DNA of 64,000 nt from Acidimicrobiia bacterium (GTDB taxonomy: Bacteria > Actinomycetota > Acidimicrobiia > Acidimicrobiales > Aldehydirespiratoraceae): positions 71,923 through 135,922 of the forward strand of contig JAJEEV010000037.1 in the NCBI GenBank assembly GCA_022820805.1, written 5' to 3'. The translations under genes were made by a program, and so were the position numbers. Under the pieces are notes generated by a model. It had not been told where the DNA came from. It saw only the letters and a list, made by a program, of their open reading frames with translations, and did no database searches. Position 1 is the first letter of the stretch. Each line of letters starts with the position of its first letter. Positions 2,762-60,664 of the stretch are shown here, piece by piece.

Positions 2762-4193
2762 CTCCCAGGCTCCCGGCGCAGCGGGCCCGCCCCCGGGCGG
2801 GCGAGCCGACCTGATCATCGAGGGCGCCTATGTCGTGACCCTCGATCCCCGCCGCCCGGTGATCGACAACGGATCGGTGGCGGTGGTGGGCACCAAGATC
2901 GCCGCCGCGGGCCCCGCAGGCGAGATCAGGGCGTCGTTCCCGGAGGCAGCCGAGCGGATCGACGCCTCGGGGTGCCTGGTGATGCCCGGGCTGATCGACA
3001 CCCACACCCACCTGTTCCAGGTCCTGGGCCGGGGGCTGGGCGACGGGCTGGAGCTGATGGCCTGGCTGGCTGACTTCATGCTCCCGATGGCGGTGCACAT
3101 GACCACCGACGACGTCGTGGCCGCGGTGAGGTTGAGCTCCCTTATGTCGGTCCTGGCGGGGACCACCGCGGTCGTCGACAACCACTACGCCCCCACCGAC
3201 ACGGCCACCACGCTGGCCGTGGCCGAGTCGGTGGAGAGCGTCGGGCTGAGGGGCGCCATCGCCCGCGGGGTGTTCGGCAGCCGCGTCGAGGGCAGCGACC
3301 GCATGGGCGTGCCCGACGAGCTGCACGCCTTTACCGCCGCCGAGGAACTGCAGATTCTCGACGAGTGCCTCGAGCAGCGCCCTCCCGGCTCCCGCGTCGA
3401 GGTCTGGCCCATGCCCGAGAACGTCGTCTACGTCGACCTGGACCTGATCGCGGCGTGCGCCGACCTGGCCGAGCGGCGCGACCTGCGCTGGCAGGCGCAC
3501 TGCAGCGAGGCCCAGGAGGAGGTCGTGATCTTCGGCGAGGTGCACGGCGAGCGGCCGGTCGAGTGGCTCAGCCGGGCCGGTCTGCTCGGGCCGCGGGCCA
3601 CCCTGGCCCACGCCATCTGGCTCGACGACGACGAGGTGGCCGCCATGGGCGCCTCCCGGGCGTGCGCGTTGCACCAGCCGGTGTGCAACCAGGTGATCTC
3701 ATCGGGGGTGATGCGGCTGCGCGAGCTCGTCGACGCGGGCGCCACCGTGGGGTTGGGCACCGACGGCCTGGCCGTCAGCGGTCAGAGCATGTTCGAGGCC
3801 ATGAAGTCGGCCTATGGCCTTCATCGACTGGCCCGCATGGATCCCACATGGCCTCCCGTAGAGCAGCTGCTCGAGCTGGTGTGCCGGCACGGGGCCCGGG
3901 TGCTGGGCAGGCCCGCGGGGGTCGTCTCCGAGGGTGCGCTGGCCGATCTGGTGGTGATCGACCTCCAATCGCCGAGGTTCCAGCCGGCGCACCGGCCGGT
4001 GGCCATGCTCGCCCTCGTGGGCCACGGCTCCGACGTGCGCGACGTGGTCGTGGACGGCGCTGTGGTTGTGCGCCGGGGCCGGCCCACCCTCGTCGATCAG
4101 GACGAGGTGATGGCCAAGGCGCGGGAGGCCGCCGAGCGTGTGGCCGGTGCTGCGGGCCTGGAGCCCTTGAGGGCTGCCTGGATCGACCGGTAG
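2754..4193 (+). CDS. Amidohydrolase, TRZ/ATZ-MtaD-SsnA-like deaminase family
   Basis: ATG overlaps upstream stop by 8 nt; HxH metal motif in PGLIDTHTHLFQ, later WQAHCSEA and GLGTDG motifs typical of this branch. Confidence 0.8.
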   Translation: MSDSQAPGAAGPPPGGRADLIIEGAYVVTLDPRRPVIDNGSVAVVGTKIAAAGPAGEIRASFPEAAERIDASGCLVMPGLIDTHTHLFQVLGRGLGDGLELMAWLADFMLPMAVHMTTDDVVAAVRLSSLMSVLAGTTAVVDNHYAPTDTATTLAVAESVESVGLRGAIARGVFGSRVEGSDRMGVPDELHAFTAAEELQILDECLEQRPPGSRVEVWPMPENVVYVDLDLIAACADLAERRDLRWQAHCSEAQEEVVIFGEVHGERPVEWLSRAGLLGPRATLAHAIWLDDDEVAAMGASRACALHQPVCNQVISSGVMRLRELVDAGATVGLGTDGLAVSGQSMFEAMKSAYGLHRLARMDPTWPPVEQLLELVCRHGARVLGRPAGVVSEGALADLVVIDLQSPRFQPAHRPVAMLALVGHGSDVRDVVVDGAVVVRRGRPTLVDQDEVMAKAREAAERVAGAAGLEPLRAAWIDR

Positions 4194-34578: not shown

Positions 34579-34597
34579 CTGAACGGAGGCTTTGCCT

Positions 34598-35992
34598 GTG
34601 ACTTCTTCCTTGCCCACTGTCGACCGGGTCGTGGCCGGCGGCACTGTCGTGTCGGGGACGGGCACCCAGGTAGCCGACGTGCTGATCGCCGGCGAGCAGA
34701 TCGCGGCCATCGCCGCCCCCGGGGTGGTCCCGCTTCCCGATTCGGTCGAGCGCATCGACGCTGCCGGCAAGTGGGTTTTGCCCGGCATGGTCGACGTGCA
34801 CGTGCATCTGCGTGAGCCCGGCTACGTCCACAAGGAGGACATCTCCACCTGCACCGCCGCGGCCGCGGCCGGGGGAGTGACCACCGTGTTCGGGATGCCC
34901 AACCTGAACCCGGTCACCAAGAACCTGCAGGTGCTCGAGGAGCTGTTCGACCTCTACGACTCCAAGAGCATCGTGGACTGGAACCACAACCCGGTGCCCA
35001 GCGTGCTGCACGAGGTGGAGCCCATGGCCGGCGCCGGGGTGGCCGCCTTCAAGATCTACATGGTGGTCGACACCGGCCGCGACTACCCCCATCCCAGCGG
35101 CACCGGCATCCACGACCACGGCCACCTGCTGCGCATGTTCGAGGCCATCGGCCCCACCGGGCTGCCGTTCATGATCCACCCCCACGACCAGGCCATCATG
35201 GACGTCACCGAGCAGACCCACTGGGACCGGGGCGACCGCAGCCCGGCCGCCTACGCCCAGACCCTGGCCACCCACAACGGGCTGATCTGGGACGCCGCCA
35301 TCGCGGTGATCCTCCAGATGGCCGAGGCCACCGGCACCAAGCTCCACATCGTGCACATGCAGACCGAGGGCTCGGTCGAGCTGGTGCGCCGGGCCAAGGA
35401 GCGGGGCGTGCCGGTGAGCTGCGAGGTCAACCACTGGGCGCTGTTCCTGTCGCGCTGGCAGGACATCGAGAAGCTCGGCCCCTACGCCCTGTCGTACTGG
35501 GTGCCCGACCACCACCGCGAGGCTGTGTGGGGCGCCCTCAACGACGGCACTATCGACATGCTGTCGTCGGACCATGCCCCCCATACCCGGGCCGAGAAGG
35601 AGGTCGGGTGGGAGGACTGCTGGGCCTGCCACACCGGCACTCCCGGCATCCAGGAGCAGTACCCGATGCTGCTGGACTGCCACATGGACGGGATGATCTC
35701 GCTGCCGAGGGTGGCCGAGGTGGTGGCCGAGGAGCCGGCCACCGAGTTCAGGCTGCCGTCCAAGGGCTTCCTGCGGCCCGGCTACGACGCCGACATCGTG
35801 ATCTTCGACCCGAACGACCAGACCCGCCACTCGGCCGACACCGTGCTGTCGAAGTGCGGCTGGACTCCTTATGACGGCCGGGTCACCAAGGGCCGGATCC
35901 ATCGCACGATCGTGCGGGGCCGCGACGTGTACGTCGACCGCAAGGTGGTCGGCGAGCCCGGCTGGGGCCGCCTGGCCCGCCCCTCACTGTGA
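34598..35992 (+). CDS. Cyclic amidohydrolase (dihydroorotase/allantoinase/hydantoinase-like)
   Basis: GGAGG 8 nt before GTG 34598; PGMVDVHVHLREPG, GGVTTVFGMPN, SSDHAPH. Confidence 0.85.
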   Translation: MTSSLPTVDRVVAGGTVVSGTGTQVADVLIAGEQIAAIAAPGVVPLPDSVERIDAAGKWVLPGMVDVHVHLREPGYVHKEDISTCTAAAAAGGVTTVFGMPNLNPVTKNLQVLEELFDLYDSKSIVDWNHNPVPSVLHEVEPMAGAGVAAFKIYMVVDTGRDYPHPSGTGIHDHGHLLRMFEAIGPTGLPFMIHPHDQAIMDVTEQTHWDRGDRSPAAYAQTLATHNGLIWDAAIAVILQMAEATGTKLHIVHMQTEGSVELVRRAKERGVPVSCEVNHWALFLSRWQDIEKLGPYALSYWVPDHHREAVWGALNDGTIDMLSSDHAPHTRAEKEVGWEDCWACHTGTPGIQEQYPMLLDCHMDGMISLPRVAEVVAEEPATEFRLPSKGFLRPGYDADIVIFDPNDQTRHSADTVLSKCGWTPYDGRVTKGRIHRTIVRGRDVYVDRKVVGEPGWGRLARPSL

Positions 35993-36048
35993 CCCGGGCC
36001 GTGACCCGCGCTGTGACCCGGGCCGTGACCCGGGCTAGACCGTGACTC
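35989..36048. repeat. 12-bp tandem repeat GTGACCCGGGCC x4-5 that reiterates the stop codon
   Basis: Units at 35989, 36001, 36013, 36025 (+ degenerate 36037); the first contains the TGA of 34598-35992 and each later unit has an in-frame TGA. Confidence 0.8.
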
Positions 36049-36070
36049 TGCTCAGGAGGACACCACTGCC

Positions 36071-37066
36071 ATGACTGACACTTCTGCCATGAAGTTCGGC
36101 CTGCTGATGCCCCATTTCGGCGGCCATGCCAGCCGCCGGGCCGTGCTCGACGGGGCCGTGCTGGCCGAGAGCTTCGGCTTCGACTCGCTGTGGGTGCGCG
36201 ACCACCTGGTGTTCGAGCCCCACTCCGAGATGGAGGCGGCCAACATCACCTTCTACGAGGCTCTCACCACCCTCACCGCCATCGGGGCGGTCACCGAGAG
36301 CATCACCCTGGGCACCGGTTCGCTGATCCCGTTCCGGCACCCGGTCCACACCGCCATCAGCATCGGCACCCTGTGCAACCTGGTCGGCGACCGGGTGGTG
36401 CTCGGCTTCGGGGCCGGCACCTTCGACCACGAGTTCGACGTGATCGACATGGCGGGCATCGACCGGGTGGGGCTGGTGCGGTCCAACGCCGAGATCCTGC
36501 GCCGCCTGCTGGCTGAGGACGGCGTCACCTACCACGACGACGTGTACTCCTTCGAGAACATCTCCATCGAGCCCAAGCCGGGGGCGCCGGTGCCGTTCTG
36601 GTACTGCGGGGCCACCCCCCGCTCGGCCCGCCTGGCCGCCGAGTACTGCGACGGCTGGATGCCGGGGCGCACCACCCTGCTCACCATCGCCGAGCGGGTG
36701 GCCACCATGCAGCGGATGACGGCGGACAACGGCCGGCCCATGCCGACGGTGGCGGTGATCCCGCCCACGTCGATCGCGGCCACCCATGACCTCGCTCTGG
36801 AGGGCGTGAACCTGGAGGGCCTGCTGGCGTGGGCCAACCTGCGGGGCAAGTGGTGGGCCAAGCCCCCGTCGGGCAGTTTCGCCACCGCCACCGACATCGA
36901 GGGCTCGCTCATCGCGGGCACCCCCGACGAGGTTGTCGAGCAGGTGGGGCGCTTCGCCGATGTGGGCGTGGAGCACCTGGTGTTCGACCTGCGCATGAAC
37001 TTCGACCGCTGGTTCGCCTCCGTCGAGCTGCTCGGCCGGGAGGTCCTCCCCGCCCTGCGAGCCTGA
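36071..37066 (+). CDS. Luciferase-like (LLM class) F420-dependent oxidoreductase
   Basis: AGGAGGA 10 nt before ATG; ESFGFDSLWVRDHL, LVGDRVVLGFGAG. Confidence 0.85.
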   Translation: MTDTSAMKFGLLMPHFGGHASRRAVLDGAVLAESFGFDSLWVRDHLVFEPHSEMEAANITFYEALTTLTAIGAVTESITLGTGSLIPFRHPVHTAISIGTLCNLVGDRVVLGFGAGTFDHEFDVIDMAGIDRVGLVRSNAEILRRLLAEDGVTYHDDVYSFENISIEPKPGAPVPFWYCGATPRSARLAAEYCDGWMPGRTTLLTIAERVATMQRMTADNGRPMPTVAVIPPTSIAATHDLALEGVNLEGLLAWANLRGKWWAKPPSGSFATATDIEGSLIAGTPDEVVEQVGRFADVGVEHLVFDLRMNFDRWFASVELLGREVLPALRA

Positions 37067-37263: not shown

Positions 37264-37830
37264 ATGACAGCAACCGCCCCCGCCCACCGGGTAGCGCCGC
37301 AAGTGACCCAAACCCCCGATCCGGACACACCCCCGCAATCGCAGGCCGCGGGCTCGGCCGTGGAGGCCGGGACCGCCAGGCCCAGGCTGCGAGACCAGAT
37401 CGCAGAGAACCCCCTGCTGAGCCTCGTCGGTGCATTGCTGACGCTCGGCGGCACTGCGATAGTCGCGCTGCTTCTCTTCACACTGACCAGCATCAACACC
37501 CGCATCGACGGTGTTGAGGTGAGCCTCGGTGACCGCATTGATCGTCTGGACGCGAGGCTCAGTGACCGTATCGATGGTGTTGTGGTGAGCCTCGGTGACC
37601 GCATTGACGGTGTTGAGGTGAGCCTCGGTGAACGTATCGATCGCGTCGAGATGAGGCTCAGCGCACGCATGGACCGCCTTGAGGACAAGATGGACGCCGG
37701 CTTCGCGGCCCAGGGCGCCGCGATCGCCGAGAACGACCGGAAGTTGACCGCGCTGGTCGCCATGCTGAACGTGACTGCTGAAGTCGACGCCGCGCTCGAA
37801 GGCAGGCTGCTGATCCCCGGCGGGAGCTGA
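37264..37830 (+). CDS. Membrane-anchored coiled-coil repeat protein (Pro-rich N-terminus, one TM helix, RIDxL repeats)
   Basis: GGGGAGAAG before ATG; TM LLSLVGALLTLGGTAIVALLLF; repeats SLGDRIDRLDARLSDRIDGVVVSLGDRIDGVEVSLGERIDRVE; RMDRLEDKMD resembles 56555-57067. Confidence 0.65.
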   Translation: MTATAPAHRVAPQVTQTPDPDTPPQSQAAGSAVEAGTARPRLRDQIAENPLLSLVGALLTLGGTAIVALLLFTLTSINTRIDGVEVSLGDRIDRLDARLSDRIDGVVVSLGDRIDGVEVSLGERIDRVEMRLSARMDRLEDKMDAGFAAQGAAIAENDRKLTALVAMLNVTAEVDAALEGRLLIPGGS

Positions 37831-38461: not shown

Positions 38462-39253
38462 GTGACGGTGTTGCCTGAGTTGGGGCTGGTCCGGTCTGAC
38501 GACCTGGACGGGGTGCTGGCTGCGGTCGACTACGACCATGCCCCCTACGCCGGCGGGACCGAGTTGGTGCCGGCCATGGGGCTGGGTCTGCGCCGTCCGG
38601 CGGCCGTTGTGGACCTCAAGCGGGTCGAGGCCCTGAGGGGGATCGACGTCGACGCCGGGGCCGCCACGGTGACTATCGGGGCGGCGGTGACCCATCGCCG
38701 GCTGTCGGACCATCCGGCTGTCCGCGAGCACCTGCCCACGCTGGCCGCCGCGGCGTCCCGGGTGGGCAACGCCCGGGTGCGCTCCACCGGAACCGTGGGC
38801 GGCAACCTCTGCTTCGCCGAGCCCCGCTCCGACCTGGGCTGCGTGCTGGTCGCGCTGGGTGCCACCGCCGAGGTTCGCTCCGCCCGGGTCACCCGCACCC
38901 TCAGCATCGACGAGCTGATCGTGGGCGCATTCGAGACCTCGCTAGAGCCGGACGAGATCCTCACCACCATTGCTGTGCCGTTCGAGCCGCCCGGCATGTC
39001 GTACTGGAAGCTCCAGAGCTACGAGCGGCCCACCCTCGGCGTCGCCCTGGTGGTCTCCGAGTCCCGGTGGGAGGTCACTGTGGGCGCGGCCACCGAGCGG
39101 CCCACCCGGGCCGTGCTCGCTGCGGGCGACACTGCCGGGCTGGCCGCCTTCGTCGACGGGTTGGAGCTCAGCGACGACATGACCGGCCCGCCCGAGTACA
39201 AGCGTTCGGTGTTGCGGTCCCACCTCGGACGGAACCTGGGGGCGACGGCATGA
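38462..39253 (+). CDS. Molybdenum hydroxylase FAD-binding (medium, CoxM-like) subunit
   Basis: YAGGTELVPAM, TVGGNLCFAEPRSD, PPEYKRSVL C-terminus. Confidence 0.85.
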   Translation: MTVLPELGLVRSDDLDGVLAAVDYDHAPYAGGTELVPAMGLGLRRPAAVVDLKRVEALRGIDVDAGAATVTIGAAVTHRRLSDHPAVREHLPTLAAAASRVGNARVRSTGTVGGNLCFAEPRSDLGCVLVALGATAEVRSARVTRTLSIDELIVGAFETSLEPDEILTTIAVPFEPPGMSYWKLQSYERPTLGVALVVSESRWEVTVGAATERPTRAVLAAGDTAGLAAFVDGLELSDDMTGPPEYKRSVLRSHLGRNLGATA

Positions 39254-39393
39254 CCGCCCTCGCGGCTACAAGCGATCGGTGCTGTGGGTTTGTCTCGAAC
39301 GGAACCTGGGGGCGACGGCATGACCGCCCGCCCGAGTACAAGCGCTCAGTGTTGCGGACCCACCTCGAGCGCGCATTAGGGGCGACCCGATGA
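39179..39393. repeat. Junction minisatellite: coxM 3' end repeated 3x (71/70/70 bp)
   Basis: Units start 39179, 39250, 39320 (ATGACCG..CCCGAGTACAAGCG..GGGGCGAC..), a fourth ATGACCGCC at 39390. Confidence 0.85.
39250..39393 (+). CDS. Junction-repeat mini-ORF (47 aa), stop/start-overlapped on both sides
   Basis: ATG overlaps coxM TGA (ATGA 39250-39253); its TGA overlaps the next ATG (39390-39393); C-terminus PPEYKRSVLRTHLERALGATR mimics the coxM end. Confidence 0.3.
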   Translation: MTALAATSDRCCGFVSNGTWGRRHDRPPEYKRSVLRTHLERALGATR

Positions 39394-39485
39394 CCGCCGC
39401 ATCTCACGTGCGTGGGGTTGGTGCCGGCCCAACAGGCAGCCAGTGGCCGAACCACGGACCCAGCAGCCCCGGAGCGGTTCGGTGA
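39390..39485 (+). CDS. Junction-repeat mini-ORF (31 aa)
   Basis: ATGA overlap at 39390-39393, GTGA overlap with the coxS start at 39482-39485. Confidence 0.3.
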   Translation: MTAASHVRGVGAGPTGSQWPNHGPSSPGAVR

Positions 39486-40000
39486 CCGGTTCCCCGGCCG
39501 CGACCTCGACTGTGGTCCGGGTGCGGGTCAACGGCCGCGCCATCGAGATGTTGGTGCCGGTGCGGCTCACCGTGGCCGAACTGCTGCGGGACCGGCTCGG
39601 GCTCACCGGTACCAAGGTCAGCTGCGAGATGCAGGTGTGCGGCGTGTGCACGGTGCTGGTGGACGGCAACCCGGTCAGTTCATGCGCCACCCTGGCCTGC
39701 GACCTCCACGGCTCCGAAGTGCTCACCGTCGAGGGCCTGGCCCGGGGCCGGGACCTGCACCCGGTGCAGGAGGCCTTCATGGCCGCCAACGCCCTGCAGT
39801 GCGGCTTCTGCACGCCCGGTCTCATCATGATGGCCGTCGCCCTACTCGAGGATCATCCCGGCGCCGAGCCCGACGAGATCCGCGAGTGGATGGACGGGAA
39901 CCTGTGCCGCTGCACCGGCTACGCGCCCATCGAGACCGCAGTAACCGTCGCCGCGGCGCGCATGGCCGCCACTACCGCTCCGCCGGAGGGCGACCAGTGA
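39482..40000 (+). CDS. Molybdenum hydroxylase [2Fe-2S] (small, CoxS-like) subunit
   Basis: CEMQVCGVCTV, CGFCTPG, CRCTGY; start set at GTG 39482 (coupled); ORF opens at 39443. Confidence 0.85.
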   Translation: MTGSPAATSTVVRVRVNGRAIEMLVPVRLTVAELLRDRLGLTGTKVSCEMQVCGVCTVLVDGNPVSSCATLACDLHGSEVLTVEGLARGRDLHPVQEAFMAANALQCGFCTPGLIMMAVALLEDHPGAEPDEIREWMDGNLCRCTGYAPIETAVTVAAARMAATTAPPEGDQ

Positions 40001-40041
40001 TCGCGGCGGTCGGCGCGGCGTGTTGGGACGGCGACCGGTGA
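39997..40041 (+). CDS. Junction-repeat mini-ORF (14 aa)
   Basis: GTG overlaps coxS TGA (GTGA 39997-40000); ends ..CWDGDR with TGA overlapping the next GTG (40038-40041). Confidence 0.25.
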   Translation: MIAAVGAACWDGDR

Positions 40042-40133
40042 GGGTACGGCTCCGGCTCCGGTGGCGGCTCGCACCGGCGCGGTGGTCGACTGGGTGCCCG
40101 ATGGGCGCGGCGTGTTGGGAGGGCGACCAGTGA
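40038..40133 (+). CDS. Junction-repeat mini-ORF (31 aa)
   Basis: Ends ..CWEGDQ-TGA overlapping coxL GTG (GTGA 40130-40133); 40104-40133 repeats 40012-40041. Confidence 0.25.
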   Translation: MRVRLRLRWRLAPARWSTGCPMGAACWEGDQ

Positions 40134-42478: not shown

Positions 42479-42858
42479 CCCGCCCCGAGATTGGGTCCCT
42501 CAGATCTCGGGTGCGCAACCTGTCGTATACCCGGACAACTCGCCCCGAGATTGCGTCCCCCCAGATCTCGGGTGCGCAACGTGTCGTATACCTGTGCTGC
42601 TCGCCCCGAGATTGCGTCCCCCCAGATCTCGGGTGCGCAACGTGTCGTATACCCGTACTGCTCGCCCCGAGATTCTGTCCCCCAGATCTCGGGTGCGAAA
42701 CGTGTCGTATGCCCGCATTACTCGCCCCGAGATTGCGTCCCCCAGATCTCGGGCGCGAAACGTGTCGTATGCCCGCATTACTCGCCCCGAGATTGGGTCC
42801 CTCAGATCTCGGGCGCGATACCGGTTGTATGCCTGTGCTGTTCGCCCCGAGATTCTGC
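42479..42858. repeat. Tandem array, 6.3 copies of a 60/61-bp hairpin-containing unit (family 2a)
   Basis: Units start 42481, 42541, 42602, 42663, 42723, 42783, 42843; each has inverted repeat CCCGAGAT..ATCTCGGG and GTGTCGTAT(A/G)CC. Confidence 0.9.
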
Positions 42859-44227: not shown

Positions 44228-45052
44228 CTAGAGGGTGGGGAGTAGCTCGTCGAAGAGGGCGCTGAAGCGTTCGGAGGCGGCGGCTGCGGTCTCGATGACC
44301 TCGGTGTGCGACAGCGGCTGATCGGAGATGCCGGCGGCCAGGTTGGTGCACAGCGAGATGCCCAGCACCTGGGCGCCCATGTGGCGGGCCGCGGTGGCCT
44401 CGGGCACCGTCGACATGCCCACCATCGACCCGCCCAACGCCTTGGCCATGCGGATCTCGGCCGGGGTCTCGAACATCGGGCCGTGGAACCAGAAGTACAC
44501 GCCCTCCCGCAGCGTCTGACCGAGCCGGGCCGCGGCCGCGTGGGCCTTGGCCTGCAGCGCGGGCGTGTACACGTCGGTCATGTCGGTGAAGCGGGGGCCG
44601 AGCCGCTCGTCGTTGGGTCCGGCCAGCGGGCTGATCCCGGCCAGGTTCACGTGGTCGGTGATCACGGCCAGGTCGCCTGCGGCCATGCCGTCGCCGCAGG
44701 CTCCGGCCGCGTTGGTGAGCACCACCACTCGGCATCCGGCCGTGATCGCGGTCCGCACCGCGAACGTGACGGCGTCGATGTCGTAGCCCTCGTAGGCGTG
44801 GGCCCGGCCCGACAGCATCAGCACCCGGTTGCCGCCCATCTGCGTCGAGTAGGCCGTGCCCGCATGGCCCACTGCGGTGGGGATCGGGAATCCGGGCAGG
44901 TCCCGGTACGACACCGCCACCTTGTCGCCGATCCGGTCCGGATAGCTGCCCAGCCCCGACCCCAGCACCACGCACACGTCGTGGCCCGCGCACCCGGCCC
45001 GCTCGGCCAGCACCCCCGCAGCCGCCTGCAACCGCTCATACAGATCCGTCAT
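44228..45052 (-). CDS. punA: Purine nucleoside phosphorylase / MTAP-family phosphorylase
   Basis: GGAGGAA 4 nt before ATG 45052; VVLGSGLG, RAHAYEG, GMSTVPE motifs. Confidence 0.85.
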   Translation of the reverse strand: MTDLYERLQAAAGVLAERAGCAGHDVCVVLGSGLGSYPDRIGDKVAVSYRDLPGFPIPTAVGHAGTAYSTQMGGNRVLMLSGRAHAYEGYDIDAVTFAVRTAITAGCRVVVLTNAAGACGDGMAAGDLAVITDHVNLAGISPLAGPNDERLGPRFTDMTDVYTPALQAKAHAAAARLGQTLREGVYFWFHGPMFETPAEIRMAKALGGSMVGMSTVPEATAARHMGAQVLGISLCTNLAAGISDQPLSHTEVIETAAAASERFSALFDELLPTL

Positions 45053-45090
45053 CGGTTCCTCCAATCACTTCGGGCTCGCAGCCGTTGTGG

Positions 45091-45543
45091 TCACGGGGTG
45101 GGGTGGGTGAAGCGGGCGATGTCGGTGGCGGCCTCCGGGTAGGTGGCGGTCAGCTCATCGCGGTCGCCCAACTCGAAGCCGTCGTCCTGGTAGGCGGGGG
45201 CCAGGGTGGCGCCGGTCAGCGACCAGTCGCCGGTGGTGGTGGCCGCCATCCACACCCCCGCGGGCACGGCCACCATCGGTCGCTGGCCCTGGGCCAGGTC
45301 GTCGCCCAGCACGGGCCGGCTCACGGCGCCGTCGGGCGCCAGCAGCAGCATCTCCACGGCCGCGCCCGCGTAGTGGTGCCACAGCTCGGGCCCCGGCAGG
45401 CGGTGCAGGGCCGAGAAGTCGCCCGGCCTCATCACGAAGTAGATGGCCGACGAGTGCTCGTCACGCCAGGTCTGGGTCCACATCCCGCCCTCCTGCAGCA
45501 GCGGCTCCAGTCCCAGCAGTTCGATCACGTCGTCAGCGTTCAT
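45091..45543 (-). CDS. Cupin_5 (DUF985) family protein
   Basis: LLQEGGMWTQTWR, AIYFVMRPGDFSALHRLPGPELWHHYAG, ATLAPAYQDDGFEL. Confidence 0.8.
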   Translation of the reverse strand: MNADDVIELLGLEPLLQEGGMWTQTWRDEHSSAIYFVMRPGDFSALHRLPGPELWHHYAGAAVEMLLLAPDGAVSRPVLGDDLAQGQRPMVAVPAGVWMAATTTGDWSLTGATLAPAYQDDGFELGDRDELTATYPEAATDIARFTHPTP

Positions 45544-45614
45544 GGTTGTGTCCTTGCCGCGGTTGCTGTGGGGTGAGGGGCGGACGGGGGCTCGATCACG
45601 TCGTCAGCGTTCAT
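45540..45614 (-). CDS. Junction-repeat mini-ORF (24 aa, MNADDVIEPPS..)
   Basis: ATGA overlaps at both ends (45611-45614 and 45540-45543); N-terminus copies the cupin N-terminus. Confidence 0.3.
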   Translation of the reverse strand: MNADDVIEPPSAPHPTATAARTQP

Positions 45615-45694
45615 GGTTGTGTCCTTGCCGCGGTTGCTGTGCGTTGAGCGTTGAGGGAGGTGGACGGCAGTTCGATCACGTAGTCAGCGTTCAC
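45611..45694 (-). CDS. Junction-repeat mini-ORF (27 aa, VNADYVIEL..)
   Basis: GTGA overlap at 45691-45694, ATGA overlap at 45611-45614. Confidence 0.3.
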   Translation of the reverse strand: MNADYVIELPSTSLNAQRTATAARTQP

Positions 45695-45717
45695 GATGCG
45701 CTCTGCCGGCCGGTCAT
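45691..45717 (-). CDS. Junction mini-ORF (8 aa)
   Basis: ATG overlaps mtaD TGA (ATGA 45714-45717); its TGA overlaps the next GTG. Confidence 0.2.
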   Translation of the reverse strand: MTGRQSAS

Positions 45718-47039
45718 CGGGCCAGTCGCCGGGCCCGGGCCTGGGCGTCGGCCACGGCCGCGGCCACGTCCACCGTCAGCACCCGGTCGCCGTCCACCAC
45801 CTTGCGTCCGGCCACCCACACCCCGCTGACCGCGCCGGGCGAGCCCGACCAAACGATCCTCGAGAGCGGGTCGTCCTCGCCGTCGATCACCGGGTTCAGC
45901 GCGGGCTCGGACCCCGACAGTTCCATCATGTCGGCCCAGCATCCCGGCGCCAGCCGGCCCAGCTCGTCGCCCCAGCCCAGCACCTCGGCGGCCCCGGCAG
46001 TCGTCATCCGCAGCGCCTCGGCCGGAGGCAGGGTCTGGGCGTCACCGGAGCGGATCCGGGCGGTGCGGATGGCGGTGCGCATCTCCTCGAACAGGTCGAG
46101 GCGGTGATGCGACGCCGGCCCGTCGGTGCCGATCGCCACCCGCAGTCCGGCCGCCCGCATCTGGGTCACCGGCGCCACCCCCGAGGCGTGCTTGGCGTTG
46201 GAGCACGGGCAGTGGACCACGGCGGTGTCGTTGCGGGCCAGCACCTCGATGTCGTCGGCGGTGAGCCACACGCCGTGGGCCGCGATCACGTCGCCCTCCA
46301 GCAGCCCGAGCGACTCCAGGTACTCGGGTGCGGCCAGCCCCCCGGACCGTTCCCGCACGGCGGCGTCCTCCCACTGCTGCTCGGCGAGGTGGATGTGCAC
46401 CGCCATGCCGGTGTCGGCGGCCCGGGCCGCGATGGCGCTGAGGCACTCCTTCGACACCGAGTAGGCCGCATGGGCCGCGATCCCGGCCCTGATCCGGTCG
46501 CTGGCGGACCAGCGGTCCCGCAGCGCCACCATCTCGTCGAGCTGCTCGGGCCACGGTCCGGTCAACGTGAAGTCGGCGTCCTCGATCACGCCCGGGGTGA
46601 CGAGGCATCGCATCCCGGCCTGATCGACGGCTTCGGCCATGGCCTGCCCGGCGAAGTACATCTCGACGGAGGTGGTGATGCCGTTGGACAGCATCTCGGC
46701 CGCTCCCAGCAGCATCCCGGCTCGCACGTCGTCGTCGGTGAGCTTCGACTCGCGGGGCCACATCACCTCGTGCAGCCACCGGTCCACCGGCAGCCCCTCG
46801 CCCGCGCCCCGCAGCAGCACCATCGGGGTGTGGCAGTGGGCGTTGATGAGGCTGGGCATGAGGATCCCGGCCCGGTGCACGTTGGTGCCGGGTTCGAGCC
46901 GGGGCGCGTCGGCGGCCGGTCCGCACCAGGTGATGCGCCCGTCGTCGTCGACGTCCACGGCCCCGCCCGTTACCGGCGCGGGCACTCCGCCGGCCGGCCC
47001 GTCCATGGTGACGAGCACGTCGCACAGGTACCGGTCCAT
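45714..47039 (-). CDS. mtaD: 5'-methylthioadenosine/S-adenosylhomocysteine deaminase-like amidohydrolase
   Basis: LINAHCHTPMVLLRGAGEGLPVDRWL, GTDGPASHH; adjacent to mtnA and a PNP-family gene. Confidence 0.8.
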   Translation of the reverse strand: MDRYLCDVLVTMDGPAGGVPAPVTGGAVDVDDDGRITWCGPAADAPRLEPGTNVHRAGILMPSLINAHCHTPMVLLRGAGEGLPVDRWLHEVMWPRESKLTDDDVRAGMLLGAAEMLSNGITTSVEMYFAGQAMAEAVDQAGMRCLVTPGVIEDADFTLTGPWPEQLDEMVALRDRWSASDRIRAGIAAHAAYSVSKECLSAIAARAADTGMAVHIHLAEQQWEDAAVRERSGGLAAPEYLESLGLLEGDVIAAHGVWLTADDIEVLARNDTAVVHCPCSNAKHASGVAPVTQMRAAGLRVAIGTDGPASHHRLDLFEEMRTAIRTARIRSGDAQTLPPAEALRMTTAGAAEVLGWGDELGRLAPGCWADMMELSGSEPALNPVIDGEDDPLSRIVWSGSPGAVSGVWVAGRKVVDGDRVLTVDVAAAVADAQARARRLAR

Positions 47040-47133
47040 CGCCCCACCCTAGAGAACCGCTAGCCCTCCGGATTCCCTGCGAGCGCGATTGGCAGCGGGT
47101 TGCACGCATACGGCGCATATCCTCCCGCGGCCC

Positions 47134-47258
47134 TCCCCTCAGATCTCGGGTGTGGAACCGGTTGTATGCCGGTGCTGTTCGCCCCGAGATTGCGTCCCTC
47201 AGATCTCGGGTGTGGAACCGGTTGTATGCCCGTGCTGTTCGCCCCGAGATTACGTCCC
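47134..47258. repeat. Family-2 hairpin repeat, about 2 units (60-bp period)
   Basis: CAGATCTCGGGTGTGGAACCGGTTGTATGCC at 47140 and 47200; CGCCCCGAGATT at 47180 and 47240. Confidence 0.85.
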
Positions 47259-47347
47259 CGGGCTGCCAGTTCGTGTGGGCCGTGGGCGGGCCGTTCCGAG
47301 GTCGTCGGCCGGGATTTCGGCGACATCCGGGCGACAACTAGCCTGCC

Positions 47348-48373
47348 GTGCGCATGAACGAGAGCGGGCTGAGGACGCTGGACTGGGTCGGCGGGGCCGG
47401 CGGCGCGGTCGAGATGGTCGACCAGACCCGGCTGCCGGCCGCCTACACCGTGCTGCGCATCGACACCGTGCCCGACATGGTGGCCGCCATCCAGCGGCTG
47501 TCGGTGCGGGGCGCTCCCGCCATCGGCGTGGCCGGCGCCTTCGGGGTGGCGCTGGCGGTGCAGGCCCACGGCACCAGCGGTCCGGCCTTCGACACCGCCG
47601 TCGCCTCGTTACGCCAGGCCCGCCCCACCGCCGTGAACCTGGCCCGAATGGTGGACCGGGCCGCGGCCCGTGCCCCCGACGGCTTCGACGCAGTCCTGGC
47701 CGAGGCCCAAGCCATCCGCGACGAGGAGTTGGCCGCCTCGGTCGCCATGGGCAACCTGGGCGCCGACCTGGTGCTGGACCTGGTGGGCCGCCCCGACGTG
47801 CGGGCCATGACCATCTGCAACACCGGCGGGCTGGCCACCGTGGAGCGGGGCACCGCCCTGGCCGTGATCCAGACCCTGCATGAGCGGGGCCGGCTGGCCG
47901 AGGCCCTGGCCCTGGAGACGAGGCCGCTGCTCCAGGGCGCCCGGCTCACCGCCTGGGAGCTCGACCGCATGGGCGCCCCCCACCGCCTGCTGGTGGACTC
48001 GGCCGGGCCGTTCATGCTGGCCAGGGGCCAGGCCGACGTGGTGCTCACCGGCGCTGACCGGGTGGCCGCCAACGGCGACACCGCCAACAAGATCGGCACG
48101 TTCTCGCTGGCGCTGGGAGCCCGCCACGCCGGCGTGCCGTTCATCGTGGTCGCGCCCGAGTCCACCGTCGACGCCGACACCCCCGACGGCGCTGGCATCG
48201 CCATCGAGGACCGGGGCACCGACGAGGTGGTGTCCCTGGCCGGCGTGGCCACCGCCCCCGACGGCACCGAGGCCGCCAACCCCGCCTTCGACGTCACCCC
48301 GGCCGACCTGATAACCGCGGTCGTCACCGACCAGCGCATAGTCCGCTTGGACCAGAACCAAACCCCCGCCTGA
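47348..48373 (+). CDS. mtnA: S-methyl-5-thioribose-1-phosphate isomerase
   Basis: VRGAPAIGVAGAFG, TICNTGGLAT, GADRVAANGDTANKIGT; GTG 47348 or ATG 47354. Confidence 0.9.
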   Translation: MRMNESGLRTLDWVGGAGGAVEMVDQTRLPAAYTVLRIDTVPDMVAAIQRLSVRGAPAIGVAGAFGVALAVQAHGTSGPAFDTAVASLRQARPTAVNLARMVDRAAARAPDGFDAVLAEAQAIRDEELAASVAMGNLGADLVLDLVGRPDVRAMTICNTGGLATVERGTALAVIQTLHERGRLAEALALETRPLLQGARLTAWELDRMGAPHRLLVDSAGPFMLARGQADVVLTGADRVAANGDTANKIGTFSLALGARHAGVPFIVVAPESTVDADTPDGAGIAIEDRGTDEVVSLAGVATAPDGTEAANPAFDVTPADLITAVVTDQRIVRLDQNQTPA

Positions 48374-49644: not shown

Positions 49645-49715
49645 AGCGGATGACGAGAATCGAACTCGCATTCTCAGCTTGGGAAGCTGATGTTCTACCA
49701 TTGAACTACACCCGC
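49645..49715 (-). tRNA. tRNA-Gly (anticodon CCC)
   Basis: Cloverleaf read by hand: acceptor GCGGGTG/CATCCGC, D arm GTTC-AATGGTA-GAAC, anticodon arm TCAGC-TTCCCAA-GCTGA, T arm GCGAG-TTCGATT-CTCGT, discriminator T; CCA not fully encoded. Confidence 0.9.
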
Positions 49716-49753: not shown

Positions 49754-50030
49754 CCGTCCTGGGCTGGTTCTCGGGTGTGTTGTGTGTCGTACACCCGCCG
49801 CTGCGCTCCCGAGAATTGGTGGGTCCGTCCTCGGCTGGTTCTCGGGTGTGTTGTGTGTCGCACACCCCCTGCTGCGCTCCCGAGAATTGGTGGGTCCGTC
49901 CTCGGCTGGTTCTCGGGTGTGTTGTGTGTCGTACGCCCGCCGCTGCGCTCCCGAGAATTGGTGGGTCCGCCCTCGGCTGGTTCTCGGGTGTGTTGTGTGT
50001 CGCACGCCCCCTGGTGCGCTCCCGAGAATT
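49754..50030. repeat. Tandem array, 4 copies of a 71-bp hairpin-containing unit (family 2b)
   Basis: GGCTGGTTCTCGGGTG at 49762, 49833, 49904, 49975; each unit also has GTGTGTCG(T/C)AC(A/G)CC and CTCCCGAGAATT. Confidence 0.9.
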
Positions 50031-50050: not shown

Positions 50051-50830
50051 CTAGGTGTAGCGGACGTAGACCGGGCGATCGGTGGACGAGCGGTCGGCGT
50101 CGAACCCGTAGCCGAGGCCGTCGAAGTCCCGCAGGCCCCGCACCGACTTCACCCGGTTGCGGATGATCCAGCCCGCCATCGACCCCCGGGCCCGCTTGGC
50201 GAAGAACGAGATCATCTTGGGCTCCTTGTCGCCCCGCCCGTCGAGGAACGCCGGCGTCACCAGCCGCCCCTCCAGCCGCCGGGTGTCCACCGAGCGGAAG
50301 TACTCGTTGGACGCCAGGTTCACCACCACCGCCGGCCCCGGGCTCTCGGCCAGGTCGGCGTTGAGCATGTCGGTGATGCGCTCGCCCCAGTAGTCGTAGA
50401 GGTCGCGGCCCCGGTCGGTGGCCAGCTTCGACCCCATCTCCAGCCGGTAGGGCTGCATCAGGTCCAGTGGGCGCAGCACCCCGTACAGCCCCGACAGGAT
50501 GCGCAGCACCTTCTGGGCGTGGGTGTAGTCGCGCTCGGTGAAGGTGGCCGCCGCGTCCATGCCCTGGTACACGTCGCCGGCGAAGGCCAGCAGCGCGGGC
50601 CGGGCGTCGGCGGTTGTGAAGGGCTCCTGGAAGTCCTGGTATCGCTCGAAGTTGAGCTCGGCCAGCTCGGCGGAGATGTCCATGAGCCTGGCGATCTCGT
50701 CGGGAGACTTCTGGCGCATCACGTCCACCAGCGGCGACGCCTCGTCCAGCATCCGGGGCTGGGAGTGCTTGCGGGTGGGCAGCGCCGAGCTGTAGTCGAG
50801 CGCCTTGGCCGGTGAGACCACGATCAGCAT
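50051..50830 (-). CDS. yaaA: Peroxide stress protein YaaA (DUF328/UPF0246)
   Basis: MLIVVSPAKALD, PALLAFAGDVYQG, NLASNEYF. Confidence 0.9.
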   Translation of the reverse strand: MLIVVSPAKALDYSSALPTRKHSQPRMLDEASPLVDVMRQKSPDEIARLMDISAELAELNFERYQDFQEPFTTADARPALLAFAGDVYQGMDAAATFTERDYTHAQKVLRILSGLYGVLRPLDLMQPYRLEMGSKLATDRGRDLYDYWGERITDMLNADLAESPGPAVVVNLASNEYFRSVDTRRLEGRLVTPAFLDGRGDKEPKMISFFAKRARGSMAGWIIRNRVKSVRGLRDFDGLGYGFDADRSSTDRPVYVRYT

Positions 50831-53199: not shown

Positions 53200-53395
53200 G
53201 CCCGCAGCCCGGAGCCCGTGGCCTGTGGCCGGCAGCCTGTGGCCGGCAGCCCGTGGCCTGTGGCCGGCAGCCCGGAGCCCGTGGCCTGTGGCTCGGAGCC
53301 CGTGGCCTGTGGCCGGCAGCCTGTGGCTCGGAGCCCGGGGCCTGTGGCCGGCAGCCCGTGGGCCGGCAGCCCGTGGCCCGGCTTGGCCTGGGTGG
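53200..53395. repeat. Degenerate GC-rich short tandem repeats (GCCCGTGGCCTGTGGCCGGCA-type)
   Basis: Fills the convergent gap between the dcd stop (53195) and the P450 stop (53409). Confidence 0.8.
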
Positions 53396-54626: not shown

Positions 54627-54632
54627 TTCCCC

Positions 54633-54812
54633 GGTCACGCTAGGCAGGAAGGGTTGATTGTCGCAATGAGCGCCTCGGGGACGACCAGGTCCCGGCAGGC
54701 GTGCGGTCACGCTAGGCAGGAAGGGCTGATTGTCGCAATAGACGCCTCGGGGACGACCAGGTCCCGGCAGGCGTGCGGTCACGCTAGGCAGGAAGGGTTG
54801 ATTGTCGCAATG
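54633..54812. repeat. 72-bp tandem repeat x2.5 of the SDR gene 5' region in the P450/SDR divergent promoter
   Basis: GGTCACGCTAGGCAGGAAGGG(T/C)TGATTGTCGCAAT at 54633, 54705, 54777; the third copy ends in the SDR ATG. Confidence 0.9.
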
Positions 54813-55637
54813 GCGCTGTTCGATGCGTTCCGGTTCGACGGCAGGCGGGTGCTGGTGGTGGGGGGTGCCACCGGGATGGGCGCCGCCGCGGCTGAGCTGG
54901 CCCTGGCCGCCGGTGCGGAGGTGGTGGTCATGGACCGGGCCGAGGTGACCCTGGCCGGGGCGACCGCCATCGGCTTGGACTTGGCCGAGCAGGCGTCGAT
55001 CGAGGCCGCGGTGGACGCTTGCGGCGGGCCGGTGCACGCCCTGCTGGCGTGCGCGGGAGTGGCCGACGGCACGCCGGGCCTCGAGCGGATCAACTTCGTC
55101 GGGCATCGTCACCTGATCGATCGCATGCTCGATGCCGGGATGCTGGCTGCGGGCTCGGCCATCGGCTTCATCTCGTCGTCGGCGGGCCTGGGCTGGGAGT
55201 CGAACCTCGAGGAGTTCAAGGAGGTGCTGGCCATCACCGACTTCGACGAGGCCGCGGCCTGGTTCGTGGCCCATCGCAAGGCCGACTACTTCCACACCAA
55301 GCAGGCGGTGTGCGCCTATGTCGCTGCCCAGGCCTACCCGATGCTTCAGCGGGGGGTTCGCATCAACGCCATCTGCCCGGGCCCGACGGTGACCCCGCTG
55401 GCCGAGGCCAACAGGGATCTGTGGCTGGAGTTCGGCGCCGACTACCGGTCCGACGCGGGGGTGGAGGCTTCCACGCCCATGGAGCAGGCCTACCCGCTGC
55501 TGTTCCTGTGCAGTGACGCCGCCGCGTACGTCACCGGGGTGACGTTGATCAGCGACGCCGGCTACATCAGCGCGGGAGTCACGGGGTCGTATCCCTCGGC
55601 CACCGACCCGGCCAACTTCCTCCTGGGCCGTTTCTGA
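54810..55637 (+). CDS. Short-chain dehydrogenase/reductase (SDR)
   Basis: VLVVGGATGMG cofactor motif, YFHTKQAV (YxxxK), INAICPGP; in-frame alternative ATG at 54666. Confidence 0.85.
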   Translation: MALFDAFRFDGRRVLVVGGATGMGAAAAELALAAGAEVVVMDRAEVTLAGATAIGLDLAEQASIEAAVDACGGPVHALLACAGVADGTPGLERINFVGHRHLIDRMLDAGMLAAGSAIGFISSSAGLGWESNLEEFKEVLAITDFDEAAAWFVAHRKADYFHTKQAVCAYVAAQAYPMLQRGVRINAICPGPTVTPLAEANRDLWLEFGADYRSDAGVEASTPMEQAYPLLFLCSDAAAYVTGVTLISDAGYISAGVTGSYPSATDPANFLLGRF

Positions 55638-60466: not shown

Positions 60467-60664
60467 AGGACCGGCCGTCGACTCGGGCCCGGCGGTCCAT
60501 CGAGGACCGGCCGTCGACTCGGGCCCGGCGGTCCATCGAGAACGGGCGGTCCATCGAGGACCGGCCGTCGACTCGGGCCCGGCGGTCCATCGAGAACCGG
60601 CGGTCCATCAAGAACCGGCCGTCTGTCAAGAACCGGTCGTCTGTCAAGGACCGGTCGTCATCTA
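60467..60664. repeat. 18-bp-based tandem repeat (AGRACCGGNCGTC...), about 11 units, some paired into 36-bp units
   Basis: AGGACCGGCCGTCGACTCGGGCCCGGCGGTCCATCG x3 interleaved with AGAAC(C/G)GGCGGTCCATC(G/A) etc. Confidence 0.85.

Follow-up and report, generated by a model that had tools for sequence, protein, structure and literature searches.

In the 64,000-nt stretch of contig JAJEEV010000037.1 analysed here (hereafter the window), which comes from an Acidimicrobiia bacterium of the Aldehydirespiratoraceae, the genes for an amidohydrolase and a Cupin_5 protein are separated on the minus strand by a gap of 170 nt, and this gap is bridged by three very short open reading frames (mini-ORFs) of 8, 27 and 24 codons. 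Four consecutive NTGA overlaps (-4 spacing), in each of which a stop codon overlaps the next start, link the amidohydrolase, the three mini-ORFs and the cupin gene in an uninterrupted relay (Table 1). Direct overlap of the two genes is the ancestral state of this junction. In one clade of sponge-associated Acidimicrobiia it was expanded repeatedly and independently, in several loci with units that are chimeras of the two flanking genes, and intact relays are found in excess over chance. We consider it probable, although well short of certain, that the array is a locally generated junction minisatellite, whose duplications were filtered by selection that keeps translational coupling.

Anatomy and authenticity of the relay

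The start-to-start hops, taken from the ORF table and recomputed with a direct script, are 23, 80 and 71 nt, each of them 2 mod 3. In the alignment, the two longer mini-ORFs appear as tandem copies, of 80 and 71 nt, of the first ~28 nt of the cupin gene followed by a C/A-rich tail of ~45-52 nt, and a repeat-finding program independently recovered three copies at spacings of 71 and 80; Tandem Repeats Finder (TRF) gave no entry for the junction array. The initial annotation of this stretch had described the perfect 4-nt overlaps, the tandem copies of the cupin 5' end with its leader and the three hops of 2 mod 3, and every coordinate, length and overlap that it gave is correct. The tails of the two units share their final 27 nt (CACAGCAACCGCGGCAAGGACACAACC), which put an AAGGA that resembles a Shine-Dalgarno (SD) sequence 7 nt before each ATG, while a 9-nt indel and several substitutions distinguish the aligned units.

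The unit tails are poor in T (4 T in 52 nt), and the gap holds just six stop codons, every one a TGA within the duplicated cupin 5' motif ATGAACGCTGACGACGTGA. The motif ATGAACGCTGA, located at 45533-45543 on the minus strand and again at 45604-45614 and 45684-45694, gives a TGA in both non-cupin frames at most 11 nt from the cupin start (45542-45540 and 45535-45533), and therefore ribosomes would terminate on the start codon or shortly past it, whatever the frame in which they arrive. The second out-of-frame TGA exists because codon 3 of the cupin gene is GCT, a rare codon that accounts for only 4.5% of the alanine codons in the genes of the window. Mini-ORF A probably represents what is left, in degenerate form, of the cupin start of the ancestor, judging from the outgroups, which have ATGACCGCCGAC (MTAD) at that place. 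A derivation of the tail in the window from the amidohydrolase 3' end was also considered; the ungapped identity is about 50% by eye, with a shared AACGC-CAG, a hint that falls short of what such a claim would need.

An assembly artefact was among the outcomes that the initial annotation had named as refuting its reading. We find it hardly credible that short-read assembly created or miscounted the copies. Two separate samples, SAMN22237342 and SAMN22237343, have ENA assemblies with an identical 170-nt gap, and both assemblies also contain the exact cupin and amidohydrolase proteins. Moreover, the units differ by substitutions and by the indel, which an artefactual duplication would not yield, and analogous arrays occur in the closed long-read chromosomes of loci L005, L007, L020 and L023. 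What speaks for an artefact comes from the Logan k-mer assemblies, in which the SRR16351691 contig has one 71-nt unit fewer, with a gap of 99 nt and still a perfect two-hop relay, and the SRR16351690 contig stops within the repeat. Shortened or interrupted contigs are the expected de Bruijn behaviour at an exact repeat of 50 nt. Thus, copy-number variation within the source population, where the only variant is this 99-nt gap that may be a collapse, is unproven.

The junction in relatives and other expanded junctions

Related loci were obtained from a scan of one genome per species, which gave 80 loci, and from a metagenome scan, which gave 80 more. In each locus the amidohydrolase stop and the cupin start were placed by tblastn, and the chain of overlapping ORFs was then followed. 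The cupin homologues were nearly all from sponge-associated Acidimicrobiia, the closest genomes being sponge-associated metagenome-assembled genomes of 'Ca. Aldehydirespirator'. In distant relatives (amidohydrolase identity ~41-63%) the two genes overlap directly, mostly by ATGA or GTGA and in a few cases by -1, and therefore this overlap is the ancestral state. Direct overlap is seen in about 30 of the more distant relatives overall. It is -4 in 16 genome loci (amidohydrolase identity 53-86%) and either -4 or -1 in ~11 further loci from metagenomes, and the close-clade members L011, L016 and L020 likewise keep the direct amidohydrolase–cupin overlap.

In the 'Ca. Aldehydirespirator' clade (amidohydrolase identity at least 76%) the two genes are separated by gaps of 10-335 nt, filled by differing junction duplications with units of 80/71, 74, 68-71, 50, 40, 39, 20 and 16 nt (Table 1). 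Comparison of the same junction in related genomes, which the initial annotation had called for, revealed an expansion in about 13 different and independent ways. Arrays differ between species and near-strains, with hops of 23/80/71, 104 and 23/74 nt. Where the units are young, their make-up is evident, and their origin from the ends of the flanking genes is clear in L014, L017, L021 and L022: the L014 mini-ORF VNADEAAPVTCPRRLAQ consists of the cupin N-terminus followed by the amidohydrolase C-terminus (...RRLAQ*), and the other three are similar. Such chimeras of a downstream N-terminus and an upstream C-terminus are precisely the expected product of a tandem duplication that spans an NTGA junction.

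Following the overlapping ORFs gave five relayed junctions in the window in all, and the four others lie between Pfam-supported genes. The two cox junctions, on the plus strand, share the relay architecture with unrelated sequence, as had been noted previously. In the coxM-coxS array the unit is 70 nt (1 mod 3) and the hop 140 nt, because with such a unit the chain skips every second ATGA. The junction between the second amidohydrolase gene and the luciferase-like monooxygenase gene contains GTGACCCGGGCC four times.

In relatives, the junction between the cupin gene and a short-chain dehydrogenase/reductase (SDR; Pfam adh_short) gene is expanded likewise. The closed 3.5-Mb chromosome of L020 has, at 3450-4133, ten consecutive mini-ORFs of 23 aa, 68 nt each and joined by GTGA, every one of which is an SDR N-terminus fused to a cupin C-terminus. 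There are four hops in L011 (65/71/71/68 nt; 3450-3728), three in L022 (3450-3657) and two in L016 (3450-3589). L011, L016 and L020 have the upstream junction unexpanded and the downstream cupin–SDR junction expanded. The ~13 expansions, the cupin–SDR arrays and the five window junctions together strongly support the earlier proposal that a general process, and not one isolated accident, is at work.

The clade loci (L003-L027) contain 18 arrays of period 30 nt or more in 127 kb vs 1 in 157 kb of outgroup loci, and therefore the minisatellite load of the clade is strongly elevated. The periods cluster at ~68-74 nt, with others at 80-82 and 111, and this holds for coding junctions as well as for non-coding sites. 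Among the junction arrays, periods of 2 mod 3 are over-represented (by our tally, about 9-10 of 15). The window also holds a 71-bp array of 3.9 copies (49754-50030) with internal inverted repeats TTCTCGGG/CCCGAGAA, which is non-coding, has no relay and is bounded by the TAG that ends a 259-aa ORF (50051-50830, minus strand) and by a tRNA gene (49645-49715, minus strand). Further TRF arrays are found at 54632-54816 (72 bp, 2.6 copies), 53209-53382 (composites of 14/21/35/49 bp), 60467-60659 (18/36/54 bp) and 37504-37659 (66 bp, 2.4 copies).

The amidohydrolase upstream of the relay matches Pfam Amidohydro_1 (3.2e-64), and its NCBIfam matches are sub-threshold throughout, with TRZ/ATZ hydrolase as the best. 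The label mtaD that it had first received is plausible but unconfirmed: the assignment reaches only the level of the TRZ/ATZ family, and all the NCBIfam equivalogs are below their cut-offs. Downstream of the cupin gene are genes for a purine-nucleoside phosphorylase (PNP), above its NCBIfam cut-off, and for a GNAT protein, and mtnA, also above cut-off, is transcribed divergently; the amidohydrolase–cupin–PNP–GNAT genes with mtnA form a methionine-salvage-like cluster. Related arrays of a 60-bp unit flank the amidohydrolase–cupin–PNP–GNAT operon, at 42481-42854 (6.2 copies) and 47136-47258 (2 copies). Single units of these fold as strong hairpins (z = -3.3 and -3.9), a hairpin-type class of dispersed repeat that is unlike the units at coding junctions.

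Other features were observed around the cupin gene of relatives. HTH_66 and PIN_10 genes, a toxin-antitoxin-like pair, lie 3' of it in L083 (1906-2830), L084 (2298-3150) and L085 (857-1895), in L084 between the cupin and PNP genes. In L019 (3541-4311) an HTH_66 gene follows the cupin gene, only HTH_66 having been examined there, and the pair is absent from the window. Cupin homologues in databases bear N-terminal extensions of 4-30 residues, spurious or real. Those of proteins P0007, P0020, P0033 and P0039 are repetitive (e.g. MNGAMNGAM..., MNAD...17 aa...MNAD) and look like either in-frame (0 mod 3) junction duplications or over-extensions by gene callers. Gene callers will mis-set starts at such junctions and miss or mis-annotate them.

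Table 1. Relay features of the window and expanded amidohydrolase–cupin junctions of related loci. Positions are those of the window.
Feature	Position	Strand	Description
Amidohydrolase, TRZ/ATZ-family, 'mtaD-like', 441 aa	45714-47039	-	Stop TGA 45716-45714; ends ...CGATGA
Mini-ORF A, MTGRQSAS, 8 aa	45691-45717	-	ATG 45717-45715 overlaps amidohydrolase TGA (ATGA); its TGA 45693-45691 is overlapped by mini-ORF B GTG 45694-45692
Mini-ORF B, VNADYVIELPSTSLNAQRTATAARTQP, 27 aa, GTG start	45611-45694	-	TGA 45613-45611 overlapped by ATG 45614-45612
Mini-ORF C, MNADDVIEPPSAPHPTATAARTQP, 24 aa, ATG start	45540-45614	-	TGA 45542-45540 overlapped by cupin ATG 45543-45541
Cupin_5 (DUF985) protein, 150 aa	45091-45543	-	Pfam PF06172, 3.8e-31, match from residue 5
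Repeat unit 1, 80 nt	45615-45694	-	Copy of cupin codons 1-9, then C/A-rich tail ending in SD-like AAGGA 45626-45622
Repeat unit 2, 71 nt	45544-45614	-	Unit 1 minus 9 nt; AAGGA 45555-45551, 7 nt before cupin ATG
Third, partial repeat copy	45516-45543	-	First ~28 nt of cupin gene
coxM–coxS junction	39250-39485	+	coxM (FAD_binding_5) stop 39253, 47 aa, 31 aa, coxS start 39482; NTGA overlaps
coxS–coxL junction	39997-40133	+	coxS stop 40000, 14 aa, 31 aa, coxL start 40130; NTGA overlaps
Amidohydrolase–luciferase-like monooxygenase junction	35987-36074	+	Amidohydrolase 34583-35992, 18 aa, 10 aa, luciferase-like monooxygenase start 36071; GTGA/ATGA
Luciferase-like–MFS transporter junction		-	Luciferase-like gene stop 10420, 18 aa, MFS transporter start 10370; relay
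L083, cupin identity 98%			+1 base in hop 1; 24+80 nt merge into one 35-aa ORF ending on cupin ATGA
L084/L085, cupin identity 95%			Hops 23, 74 nt
L003, cupin identity 97%			Hops 23, 82 nt; second ORF overshoots to GCTGA stop 8 nt inside cupin
L004, cupin identity 91%			Hops 25, 73 nt; first-hop ORF overshoots second ATG by 8 nt to GCTGA; ORF from second ATG would overshoot cupin start likewise
L005 (closed chromosome)			3 x 74 nt
L007			8 x 40 nt
L023			10 x 16 nt
L013			2.4 x 39 nt
L008, L017, L021, L091			68-71 nt units
L012, L014, L019, L022			50 nt unit
L010, L090			20 nt units

Chance, selection and coupling

Taken alone, the window junction is not statistically remarkable (P about 0.03-0.19): when the gap is shuffled by dinucleotides, 3.3% of the versions hold a complete relay, as do 19% of frame-randomised versions, in which the sequence and the NTGA motifs were kept and each inter-motif spacing was lengthened randomly by 0-2 nt. 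Significance is reached only when alleles and junctions are considered together. Among 25 distinct expanded alleles there are 17 perfect relays, 4 in-frame N-terminal extensions and 4 broken chains, vs 6.9 relays and ~10 broken chains expected under frame randomisation, the most conservative null (P about 9e-6). With dinucleotide shuffles, 16 relays were seen in 24 alleles vs 7.6 expected (P about 3e-7). When the alleles are collapsed to ~13 origin groups, 8 are relays, 4 are in frame and 1 is broken, which, for a chance of breakage of 0.41, gives a P of about 0.013 by our own arithmetic. A window-wide denominator of same-strand junctions was dropped, as gene starts based on ORFs are unreliable in DNA of 71% GC. 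Spurious NTGA chains do occur: one runs from the cupin stop through 9 and 10 aa and enters the wrong frame of the PNP gene.

In the mechanism that we favour, the ancestral NTGA overlap of amidohydrolase stop and cupin start is a classic translational-coupling arrangement. A segment spanning this junction would have been tandemly duplicated in the sponge-symbiont clade, through slippage or through unequal recombination. Each unit bears the downstream gene's 5' codons, a new NTGA, and a tail with the SD-like AAGGA that descends from the upstream 3' end or has replaced it; where the unit length is 2 mod 3, each unit is therefore a mini-ORF that shares its stop with the start that follows. A ribosome that ends the amidohydrolase would go through three rounds of termination and reinitiation (over 8, 27 and 24 codons) before it arrives at the cupin AUG, and AAGGA-bearing units may also load ribosomes de novo. 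The peptides would be by-products, because they are not conserved between relatives and do not have the codon bias of the genome. Duplications that uncouple the downstream gene would be selected against, as is implied by the persisting alleles, which mostly keep the hand-over or an in-frame fusion. If reinitiation has an efficiency r<1 and each unit loads ribosomes de novo at d, downstream translation would tend to d/(1-r) as copies accumulate, and the array would progressively insulate the cupin gene from the translation rate of the upstream gene. We infer that selection, and not a mutational bias, lies behind the relay excess, and array copy number may affect the cupin:amidohydrolase ratio.

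Several points weigh against this interpretation. Serial reinitiation reaching the cupin AUG is deduced from the geometry alone, and the final unit has its own AAGGA; therefore, the cupin may be translated independently of the relay. The allele-level P-values (9e-6 and 3e-7) ignore shared ancestry. The relay is also cheap: frame randomisation gives it with a probability of 0.19-0.35 per allele, and it is easily obtained because the units are T-poor, so that stops are rare, and because every unit copies the NTGA. Breakage of the chain in related strains, which the initial annotation had named as a finding that would count against the relay if cupin expression were unaffected, was looked for and does occur, but in a minority of alleles: L003, L004, L007 and L027 are not perfect relays, two of them (L004 and L007) being known from assemblies of long reads. 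Termination in L003, L004 and L007, of which L007 was traced by hand from the sequence, is at the second out-of-frame TGA of ATGAACGCTGA, with a -11 overlap. Since such alleles persist, a strict -4 hand-over is not needed for persistence.

The same observations support a neutral by-product, in which minisatellites form throughout the clade, junction duplications are tolerated, the relay is an automatic consequence of NTGA being copied where DNA is GC-rich and poor in stops, and is irrelevant to cupin expression, and the cupin gene uses its own SD. This accords with the elevated minisatellite load, many of the arrays being at non-coding sites, with the AAGGA before the cupin ATG, with the four broken alleles and with the 35% of window-junction versions that still relay after a random 1-nt indel. 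Against it stand the excess of relays and the deficit of broken chains, the preference of junction-array periods for 2 mod 3, and the length differences between homologous units, most of which are divisible by 3 (80/71/74, 68/71) or else compensated, as by the merged 24+80 nt of L083. For these reasons we regard the neutral explanation as unlikely, though as one that keeps a serious claim to attention.

Insertion of a mobile element at the start codon, as a dispersed repeat that resembles MIRUs (mycobacterial interspersed repetitive units) and was then amplified, would explain the geometry, with units of 40-100 bp, internal ORFs and -4 overlaps (PMC12548453; PMC3184786), as well as the empty sites in relatives. 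Relatives have empty -4 sites, and an NTGA flanks each unit; the units, however, consist of sequence from the flanks, which points to duplication rather than insertion. In blastn-short searches of the 64-kb window and ~0.5 Mb of related loci, no dispersed copies of the unit were found apart from those at the same junction, its tail occurring there in the window and in the closest relative, and no exact 25-mer match was obtained in JGI metagenomes. Moreover, the units of other junctions and species are mutually unrelated and visibly built from the ends of their flanking genes. As far as sequence comparison can tell, the mobile-element explanation is largely refuted, and we consider it very improbable.

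A function as micropeptides, as regulatory leader peptides or as an RNA switch for the cupin gene could be suspected from the intact ORFs, two of which have an SD. However, the peptide sequences are not conserved even between close relatives, and the GC content at third codon positions (GC3) of the mini-ORFs is 0.63-0.67 vs 0.93 in genes. The RNA fold of 45500-45740 is no better than that of shuffles (z = +0.65), and Rfam at E<=1 gave no match across 44900-47500. A scan for sigma-70-type promoters and intrinsic terminators found no consensus in or around the gap. A functional product of this kind thus seems exceedingly improbable.

A more far-reaching version of the coupling hypothesis is that a lineage-specific process in sponge-symbiont Aldehydirespiratoraceae repeatedly turns -4 junctions into self-derived arrays of initiation and termination sites (typically 68-74 nt) that act as functional ribosome relays or landing pads, and hence as a heritable and rapidly evolving translational rheostat. 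We hold this to be doubtful and put it forward only tentatively. Each hop would lessen the dependence on the upstream gene and raise that on the SD of the unit itself, and copy number, from 1 to >10, would tune or insulate the stoichiometry of subunits or enzymes within operons. Such a rheostat, if it exists, would be distinct from the dispersed MIRU family.

Comparison with known systems

The NTGA (-4) overlap is the commonest and most efficient geometry of translational coupling, and coupling declines faster with growing overlap than with growing spacing (PMC12548453). The relay resembles ordinary NTGA coupling in that every hop is -4, as was the overlap by which these two genes were joined ancestrally; it differs in having four hand-overs in series, and up to eleven in relatives, through non-functional mini-ORFs. 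If the relay is functional, the arrays would constitute a natural series of serial termination-reinitiation, with 1-11 hops, -4 vs -11 overlaps and units with and without an SD. Such a series, from closed genomes of one clade, is of the kind required for a choice between scanning and unfolding as models of coupling, a choice that a 2025 review calls unresolved (PMC12548453). Upstream ORFs and synthetic bicistronic designs (PMC12548453) are similar in that a short, functionless, SD-bearing ORF terminates at the true gene's start codon and supplies that gene with ribosomes, but here the arrangement is natural, is present in multiple copies and comes from duplication of the initiation region of the gene itself.

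Another parallel is the rnc-fpg junction, which measures a few bp in most mycobacteria and in the M. tuberculosis complex is filled by repeats over 279-358 bp (PMC2734929). In this variable-number tandem repeat of the MIRU type, too, a junction of a few bp was expanded to hundreds of bp in one clade, with an array that ends at the downstream start. However, the repeats begin 40 bp past the upstream stop, and no stop-start relay is described in PMC2734929. In our literature search, made in a limited library, no account was found of self-derived junction duplications with relays outside MIRUs. Across the clade, coupled junctions have been expanded recurrently in ways that preserve the relay; this pattern is real and appears to be undescribed within the literature searched.

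MIRUs themselves (Supply et al. 1997, summarised in PMC12548453 and PMC3184786), an evident precedent to which the initial annotation had not referred, have unit ORFs that overlap their neighbours with -4 spacing. They are 40-100 bp long and present at ~40-50 sites, their ORFs overlap the adjacent genes, and filled and empty sites with tetranucleotide repeats are known (PMC3184786). The array described here shares with them the tandem units of 40-100 bp (80 and 71 nt) between co-oriented genes of a high-GC actinobacterium, the short ORF with -4 overlaps to neighbours and flanking genes that makes up each unit, and the empty sites in related species with varying copy number. It differs in its host, an uncultured sponge-symbiont member of the Acidimicrobiia and not Mycobacterium, and in its units, which are specific to each junction and derived from its own flanking genes, whereas MIRUs are one dispersed consensus family that is thought to be mobile. 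As it is not a dispersed family, the array is best classified as a MIRU-like variant and not as a MIRU. MIRU-like architecture can thus apparently arise without a mobile element, by duplication of a coupled junction, which bears on the origin of MIRUs.

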